Positions 42,118-42,950 of a stretch of 64,000 nucleotides of DNA are shown here, piece after piece. Made by a program: the position numbers and the translations under genes. This DNA comes from Centroscyllium fabricii (Eukaryota). The stretch is from contig JBNRSN020000026.1 of assembly GCA_051313645.2 (NCBI GenBank), positions 51,398,001 to 51,462,000 on the forward strand, in the 5' to 3' direction. The notes under the pieces are model-generated. The model ran no database searches. It saw nothing but the letters and a program-made list of their open reading frames with translations, and was not told where the DNA came from. Each line of letters starts with the position of its first letter. Within the stretch, counting starts at the first letter, position 1.

Positions 42118-42369
42118 GAAGTCACACAACACCAGGTTATAGTCCAACAGTTTTATTTGAAATCACAAGCTTTCGGAGCGGCTGCCCCTTCGTCAGGTGA
42201 AAGAGAAGCTGACTTAAATGTGCGTTCTTTAAGTCAGCTTCTCTTTCACCTGAGGAAGGGGCAGACGCTCCGAAAGCTTGTAATTTCAAATAAAACTGTT
42301 GGACTATAACCTGGTGTTGTGTGACTTCTTACATTTGTCCACCCCAGTCCAACACCGGCACCTCCACAT
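42118..42369. mobile_element. Fold-back Penelope-derived element downstream of the Dlx4 stop
   Basis: TSD CCTGA(A/G)TATTCCAG; two hammerhead cores. Confidence 0.85.
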
Positions 42370-42950
42370 CCTGAGTATTCCAGTCAGATGCTCCTCCAAC
42401 TAAAACAGATGTTTACAGCTCGGTCTGGCTGAAGTTCTATACGGTAAATTACACAATGCTTCAATCTGGAATTGCGGTAATTAAATACAAATAGACACAG
42501 AAAGCTGATACGGCACTTGCCCTAACACAGGGACTGGGACGGCCTATCAGTGAACACTTTGAAATACAGCCTATGCATTTTACCCAACGAAGAAGGATCT
42601 GCATCCTGGAGTAAAAATGCGTTTCTCTTTTGTTAAAACATTAAAAGTGAGCTTAATAGAATAGCTATAAAATCAGTCCTTTTTTTTGCAATTCACAACG
42701 TAGATTATAGATGCATCAAACTTCTCCAATAGAATTCCAAACATCATACACAGCTCATTAGAGGAGTCTGACTCTATATACCCATTGTATTTCTAGAACA
42801 AACCTGTTTAGATATGACTGAAAGCATATAGTCATTGTTATCTCTAACCAGTCGCCTTTTCTCGTCCATAAGACTACTTCAAATCATGTGGACACTGATT
42901 TTTTTTTTACATGATAAAAAGTTTGTGGGGTAGATTGTACTCCTGGTCAA

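Follow-up and report, generated by a model that had tools for sequence, protein, structure and literature searches.

Dlx4 is a patterning gene of the jaw, fin and sensory placode, and the copy of it in the shark Centroscyllium fabricii raises the question of how a mobile element lying shortly behind the stop codon affects the 3′ end of the transcript. In the stretch of DNA that was analyzed (64,000 nt of contig JBNRSN020000026.1, hereafter the window), an earlier note had proposed that a hammerhead motif, a hairpin and the first poly(A) signal downstream of Dlx4 might all come from one Penelope insertion. It further proposed that the Dlx4 mRNA either ends at a transposon-donated poly(A) site or carries a ~100-bp dsRNA stem and a ribozyme motif in its 3′ UTR, with possible post-transcriptional control of the gene.

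The gene lies on the minus strand, with the coding part of exon 3, including the stop codon (42953-42951), at 42951-43202, exon 2 at about 46709-46503 and exon 1 at about 47688-47389. The two top database matches were cartilaginous-fish proteins named DLX-6 or DLX-6-like (96% and 89%); among the matches that followed, identity reached 77% for DLX4s and was near 66% for DLX6s. A tree was built from 20 exon-3 sequences chosen from the 120 matches listed, together with that of the window, and in it a 100/100 branch set eight bony-vertebrate DLX6 rows apart from the window sequence, the two best matches and nine DLX4 rows, and Dlx6-like and Dlx1-like last exons were found at separate loci in the genome. 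A published catshark Dlx4 primer matches at 43124 in exon 3 with one mismatch, and the published catshark Dlx3 primer matches exactly in the convergent plus-strand gene at 24957-29432. Based on the tree split, the separate paralogue loci and the primer matches, these sequence comparisons indicate that the gene is Dlx4, convergent with Dlx3, as the earlier note had named it. A Dlx6 identity, the label of the two best database matches, was ruled out by the tree and the paralogue search. Two proteins from a ray and a chimaera (P0002 and P0003), labeled DLX-6 or DLX-6-like in public databases, cluster with DLX4 and are probably mislabeled.

The insert behind Dlx4 comprises 251 bp (42119-42369) and is flanked by a 14-bp target-site duplication, the right copy of which (42370-42383) is identical to the left copy (42105-42118) at 13 of 14 positions. 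Its long arm (42228-42329, plus strand) corresponds to the 3′ end of the pseudo-LTR when read in the sense of the element and forms the 5′ strand of a hairpin in the Dlx4 transcript; a short inverted arm (42117-42218, minus strand) forms the 3′ strand, and a 9-nt loop (42219-42227) marks the fold-back junction. A tail extension of 35-40 nt (42330-42369, plus strand), as such tails are defined in PMC8557442, is present at one end only. The two arms, 102 nt each, are 97% complementary and fold with a predicted energy of -201.4 kcal/mol (z -23), a stability reached by 0 of 100 shuffled sequences, which bears out the hairpin that had been proposed here. Since the arms mismatch at 3 of 102 positions, the sequence marks this copy as young. 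The coordinates given earlier for the element hold, but it is slightly larger than the left limit then implied, and it is symmetrical, with a hammerhead core (42250) and an AATAAA (42289) on the plus strand too, both in the long arm.

The long arm is identical at 149 of 159 nt to the end of a genomic locus, L004, in which the terminal repeat lies directly behind a frame with reverse transcriptase (RT) motifs, a CX4CxxC linker and a GIY-YIG-type end; the same terminal repeat follows such a frame at two further loci (L002 and L009). Against Pfam, the L004 frame matched RVT_1 at an E value of 1.9e-5, which is weaker than the Pfam cut-off, and the endonuclease piece of L002 searched alone gave no matches, the GIY-YIG-type motifs there being read by eye. 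Fifty relatives of the L004 frame were found at E<=1e-20, the closest being from two sharks (79% and 74%); 49 of the 50 carry PF26215 or PF28514, and six are annotated with the GIY-YIG domain PF01541. The CX4CxxC motif separates RT from endonuclease in L004, as it does in the shark database proteins P0122 and P0123, and the broader CX2-5CxxC pattern is present in 26 of the 50 relatives. As described in the available text of PMC8557442, a CX2-5CxxC linker is a feature of the Neptune/Nematis type, and the linker points to an element of that type. The insertion unit of Penelope-like elements has been described as including an inverted truncated neighbor copy, a one-sided tail, a target duplication and a hammerhead (PMC8557442, PMC3846280), and the insert behind Dlx4 resembles the endonuclease-bearing units described there in its 5′ truncation, its adjacent inverted truncated copy, its tail at one end (30-40 bp in those units), its short target duplication and the hammerhead in its pseudo-LTR. 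Unlike the typical unit in those descriptions, it has only ~100 bp per arm and no coding remnant, which gives it the look of a small palindrome, and it adjoins a homeobox gene. On the basis of the inverted truncated copy, the tail at one end, the duplication with the corresponding empty site (see below) and the continuity of the terminal repeat with an RT/GIY-YIG frame, we assign the insert to the 5′-truncated fold-back terminal-repeat copies of an endonuclease-bearing (EN+) Penelope-like retroelement. The proposal of a single Penelope-like insertion as the source of the hairpin, the hammerhead motif and the first AATAAA is thereby supported by the L004 match and the 14-bp duplication. An origin as a MITE or other DNA transposon was ruled out, because the arms meet at the center and continue into an RT frame. 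In titles and the openings of abstracts from mostly open-access literature, no shark Penelope hammerhead or Dlx4 UTR element at this locus was found.

The hammerhead core that had been reported at about 42200-42163 proved to match the published minimal type I motif position by position (minus strand, 42163-42200; PMC4209133). It consists of a 4-bp helix I reaching out to 42200/42163, CUGACGA with C3 at 42196, an extra A, a 5-bp helix II and GAAA; a palindromic AGCU replaces helix III, and position 17 (42167) is a U. The call rests on this match by position, since a search of the window with Rfam gave no matches at the gathering score. The minimal metazoan Penelope-like hammerhead is described as having a short helix I, an extra nucleotide between 9 and 10.1, G10.1-C11.1 and a palindromic 15.2-16.2, and no helix III (PMC4209133); the extra nucleotide, G10.1-C11.1 and the palindromic 15.2-16.2 are all intact in the Dlx4-strand motif, which shares these sequence features. 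In the same work, Cervera and de la Pena (2014) described motifs that occur in pairs, one on each strand, at distances of 100-700 bp, and reported that self-cleavage was absent for single minimal hammerheads and that dimers had low activity; sharks are not named in the available text, and the motif here differs in its U17. Among 63 cores of the family that we collected, with a search pattern that fixed part of the core so that those positions are not independent, the helix II pairs hold in 61-62 and helix I pairs 1-4 in 56-63; one one-sided G-U/A-U change and no two-sided change were seen. A U occupies position 17 in 61 of the 63, only the copy at 55240-55488 having a C. A U at hammerhead position 17 makes a slow triplet. 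That the family spread despite a probably slow triplet suggests that cleavage was not limiting. According to the available text of a study in the anole, the hammerhead there cut only with the protein of the element, and RNA-seq gave zero reads starting or ending at the cleavage site (PMC11167929); of nine Xenopus hammerhead dimers, eight were reported without cleavage (bioRxiv 10.64898/2026.07.22.740005). The Clec2 3′-UTR and intronic RECK-type hammerheads (PMC6155905) likewise place a hammerhead motif in a non-coding part of a vertebrate host transcript, but as described there they are kept across species and are not minimal, whereas the one at Dlx4 is minimal, restricted to this lineage and buried by pairing with its own complementary arm.

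These features are common in the family. Twelve copies lie in the window, eight of them with both arms by the clusters listed, and a rough sample of the genome, no census (forty 10-kb stretches at round-number positions on large contigs, 399.8 kb in all), held eight copies, five of them fold-back. Extrapolated from this rough sample, the family has about 1.4 x 10^5 copies (Poisson range 0.6-2.8 x 10^5). An AATAAA follows in 62 of the 63 cores, and the sequences indicate that hammerhead, hairpin and AATAAA are the standard kit of this Penelope family; given that count and the high copy number, the trio at Dlx4 is therefore routine for it. Compared with the genome sample, the window is enriched about ninefold (12 in 63 kb, p 1.8e-6), and the next 40 kb beyond it (L092-L095) are enriched too, with nine copies. 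No copies were found in 60 kb around Dlx1/2, and three in 60 kb around Dlx5/6; the interval between the Dlx3 and Dlx4 stops holds five copies, and there are none between Dlx1 and Dlx2 or between Dlx5 and Dlx6. This local density suggests either that constraint on the Dlx3/4 interval is relaxed or that insertion is biased toward the region. A catshark study, in its available text, reports that catshark has zero conserved elements in common with mouse and zebrafish between Dlx3 and Dlx4 (PMC3695995), which fits a region that tolerates insertions. One of the neighboring copies is a second fold-back copy at 39782-40051, with a 12-bp duplication (39770-39781/40052-40063) and its own hammerhead and AATAAA on the Dlx4 strand, buried as in the first copy in a hairpin of -223 kcal/mol. 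Fold-back copies also lie in both Dlx3 introns (26021-26440 and 27845-28101); both carry an AATAAA in sense orientation, and the reading frame of Dlx3 is intact despite them; for the copy at 27845-28101 the predicted cost of opening the AATAAA is again 10.9 kcal/mol, the value obtained for the Dlx4 copy below. The Dlx3 introns thus provide a partial internal control, in which sense AATAAA copies are tolerated. The control is weakened by the fact that U1 can silence intronic poly(A) signals.

The earlier statement that the first AATAAA after the Dlx4 stop lies inside the element (42152-42157, minus strand) and is preceded by no AATAAA or ATTAAA was correct: in the 567 nt of the minus strand between stop and element neither hexamer occurs. 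This absence is unremarkable, as 40% of 2000 dinucleotide shuffles of those 567 nt also lack both. Weaker hexamers are present in the interval (AATACA at 42791-42786 and AACAAA at 42634-42629). Judged by linear sequence, the AATAAA site is a good poly(A) signal, with the hexamer followed at 20-32 nt by a GU-rich stretch (42132-42120, U+G 0.67). Both parts are predicted to be paired. In full context the AAUAAA has a mean predicted unpaired probability of 0.002, and opening it would cost 10.9 kcal/mol, compared with 0.8 when the first arm is removed; for the GU-rich stretch the corresponding predictions are 27.1 and 4.0 kcal/mol. In predicted folds of nascent chains ending at 42152 the hexamer is already paired, and forcing hammerhead helices I and II gives a structure 64.4 kcal/mol above the hairpin. 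These are equilibrium predictions that ignore factors riding on the polymerase; they suggest that the hammerhead fold is not adopted in the host transcript and that the AAUAAA is inaccessible on the Dlx4 strand. Since the 3′ arm of the hairpin, the complement of which is transcribed first, contains both features, the hairpin is predicted to hide them both, such that the three features exclude each other. In HIV-1, a hairpin of -17.5 to -24.7 kcal/mol is reported to mask the AAUAAA from CPSF (PMC2645353); the predicted masking by pairing is similar here, and the stem exceeds the one described there about tenfold in stability. In the sequence of the empty site, the first canonical-type hexamer is an ATTAAA at 41726-41721 on the minus strand, predicted to be open and with U/G-rich sequence downstream, which is a candidate for the native proximal poly(A) signal; native candidate hexamers farther downstream have predicted opening costs of 0-3.8 kcal/mol.

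Evidence on the site before insertion, and on the transcripts that cross it, came from other organisms. Eleven probable-RNA runs from four of them were available, their RNA status being the guess of a tool, and four (X1, X2, X7 and X9) were examined. A 518-nt contig of X1 starts at 42499, joins 42372 to 42098 and reaches 41805; its joint skips 273 nt with seven letters between, a net 266 versus the 265 expected for an empty site. In X7, a 1794-nt contig extends over 42673-42376, 41923-41700 and 41459-40729 and, over the site, falls short of the window by about 247 nt. X2 yielded one unspliced contig of 4357 nt (41975-37408, depth 133.7), which begins at about the site, covers 4.4 kb downstream of it and takes up a third of the Dlx3-Dlx4 interval; it also leaves out the second copy (39769-40052), the 12-nt overlap at that joint being equal to the duplication of the copy. 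No piece of X9 was found across the insertion site. The contigs look like RNA, because the bins of the Dlx4 intron (43238-46174) have depths of only 0-5, as opposed to 63, 10.6 and 133.7 for the three contigs. They carry no strand information, and all of them stop short of the Dlx4 coding exons. Those exons are almost uncovered in the runs, possibly through an effect of filtering, and we did not count this as evidence. The presence or absence of the element in other sharks had been put forward as a check, and the element is absent from the two relatives whose contigs bridge the site (X1 and X7) and continue 0.3-1.6 kb past it. With no orthologous copy in these two, the conservation expected of a domesticated ribozyme or UTR element was not found. 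Among the contigs listed for the DNA runs X13, X15 and X16, which bear on polymorphism of the insert and on its presence in organisms F and G, none bridges or clearly enters the site, and a search of the assembly for a second haplotype of the flank returned one match only.

Taken together as colinear, the strandless probable-RNA contigs delimit a putative maximal Dlx4 3′ UTR of 37408-42950 (minus strand). Their simplest reading is a 3′ UTR of 2-5.5 kb that is older than both insertions, with an ancestral 3′ end that likely lay well downstream of the element. It would follow from a 3′ UTR predating the insertions that the element gave an extra, buried, proximal poly(A) signal and not the gene's own. 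The contigs may instead derive from a separate intergenic transcript or lncRNA. The end of the X2 contig at 37408 lies 23 nt past a GATAAA and beside a contig of sevenfold lower depth, which is a weak hint, from one study, of a distal end; a second X2 contig (depth 19.4) continues to 35917 and beyond. At 37106-37389 there is a TAAT-rich patch with eight differences in 284 nt relative to organism B, neighboring pieces differing by about 8-10%, and by sequence it is a candidate chondrichthyan-conserved enhancer. High-copy older repeat relics with raised depth, which may resemble the 3′ tails of shark LINEs and SINEs, flank the insertion site at 41960-42100 and 41800-41910. A perfect 18-nt inverted pair (41424-41441/42558-42575), its halves 1.1 kb apart, brackets the element inside the inferred UTR and could be a long-range stem or chance.

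In view of the predicted folds and the contigs of the relatives, we consider it probable that the insert is a passenger hairpin in a long Dlx4 3′ UTR, in which both its poly(A) signal and its ribozyme are silent. On the Dlx4 strand the complementary arm would be made first, and the second arm would zip up on leaving the polymerase, so that a duplex of ~100 bp would enclose the AAUAAA together with its GU-rich downstream element, as well as the hammerhead core. Factors of 3′ processing would then mostly skip the buried signal in favor of native sites farther down (41726 or beyond), the ribozyme would not cut, and the mature mRNA would carry one or two long hairpins that serve no function under selection. 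Of the two outcomes first envisaged for the mRNA, the contigs of the relatives accordingly favor a ~100-bp dsRNA within the 3′ UTR, and the transposon-donated poly(A) site, with its buried hexamer, is not supported. That donation would require processing factors on the polymerase to catch the AAUAAA before the arm zips, at a loss of 0.4-4.7 kb of ancestral UTR from the Dlx4 mRNA of this lineage. Its position as the first AATAAA after the stop, the GU-rich stretch 20-32 nt downstream and the retention of AATAAA after 62 of 63 cores, as expected of the element's own signal, would all suit a working site; the predicted pairing of hexamer and downstream element (10.9 and 27.1 kcal/mol to open), the documented masking of an AAUAAA by a hairpin (PMC2645353) and the sense copies tolerated in both Dlx3 introns make it rather unlikely. 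It is very unlikely that the Dlx4 mRNA ends upstream of 42384, at a weak signal such as the AATACA or AACAAA noted above, leaving the element outside the mature mRNA, given that the contigs of relatives cross the site from 42673 (X7) and 42499 (X1).

Should the mRNA read through, one or two hairpins of ~100-135 bp might alter Dlx4 output via A-to-I editing, dsRNA-binding proteins or Dicer. Long repeat duplexes are substrates of ADAR and Dicer, and inverted Alu pairs in 3′ UTRs form long repeat-derived dsRNA in a like manner; an Alu pair takes two insertions, whereas the hairpin here comes from a single one. The Dlx4-strand hairpins (-201 and -223 kcal/mol) both fall within the span of a relative's contig, which is consistent with such an effect, but both insertions are absent where relatives bridge the site, leaving no conservation, and given 23 copies in 143 kb, chance alone would place a copy in 59% of stretches of 5.5 kb; we regard an effect of this kind as unlikely. 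Cleavage of the Dlx4 RNA by the hammerhead, which might dimerize with the second sense copy (39903) or be assisted by the protein of the element, would destabilize the mRNA. The core with its extra nucleotide, G10.1-C11.1 and 15.2-16.2 is intact, and another sense core follows 2.3 kb farther down; each core is predicted to be locked in its own hairpin, and the U at position 17 makes the triplet a slow one. Dimers have low activity, which leaves some room for cutting, but monomers are inactive and even dimers weak (PMC4209133), and together with the lack of anole reads at the cleavage site (PMC11167929) and the eight of nine Xenopus dimers that did not cleave (bioRxiv 10.64898/2026.07.22.740005) this makes cleavage highly improbable. 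As such, post-transcriptional control of Dlx4 by the ribozyme, as had been suggested, is not supported: the hairpin is predicted to bury the motif, the insertion is absent in relatives and the trio is routine for the family.

The locus therefore appears to be an ordinary product of Penelope insertion with known anatomy, and a passenger hairpin of this kind carries a caution, that a ribozyme motif or an AATAAA within a fold-back repeat may be unusable. A passenger dsRNA effect on Dlx4 may nevertheless exist. A broader proposal, which we hold to be rather doubtful, is that single Penelope insertions give shark mRNAs hairpins of ~100 bp at some 10^5 sites, and that two of them, or a donated signal, re-tuned Dlx4 in this lineage by editing, dicing or UTR shortening; if true, single-insertion hairpins would be the one-step counterpart of inverted Alu pairs. 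If the buried signal were used, poly(A) choice would beat a hairpin of -200 kcal/mol, and if the dsRNA had an effect, a very abundant shark repeat would be tied to the output of a developmental gene. The Dlx4 locus offers a convenient natural test, for which the relatives supply the empty allele.
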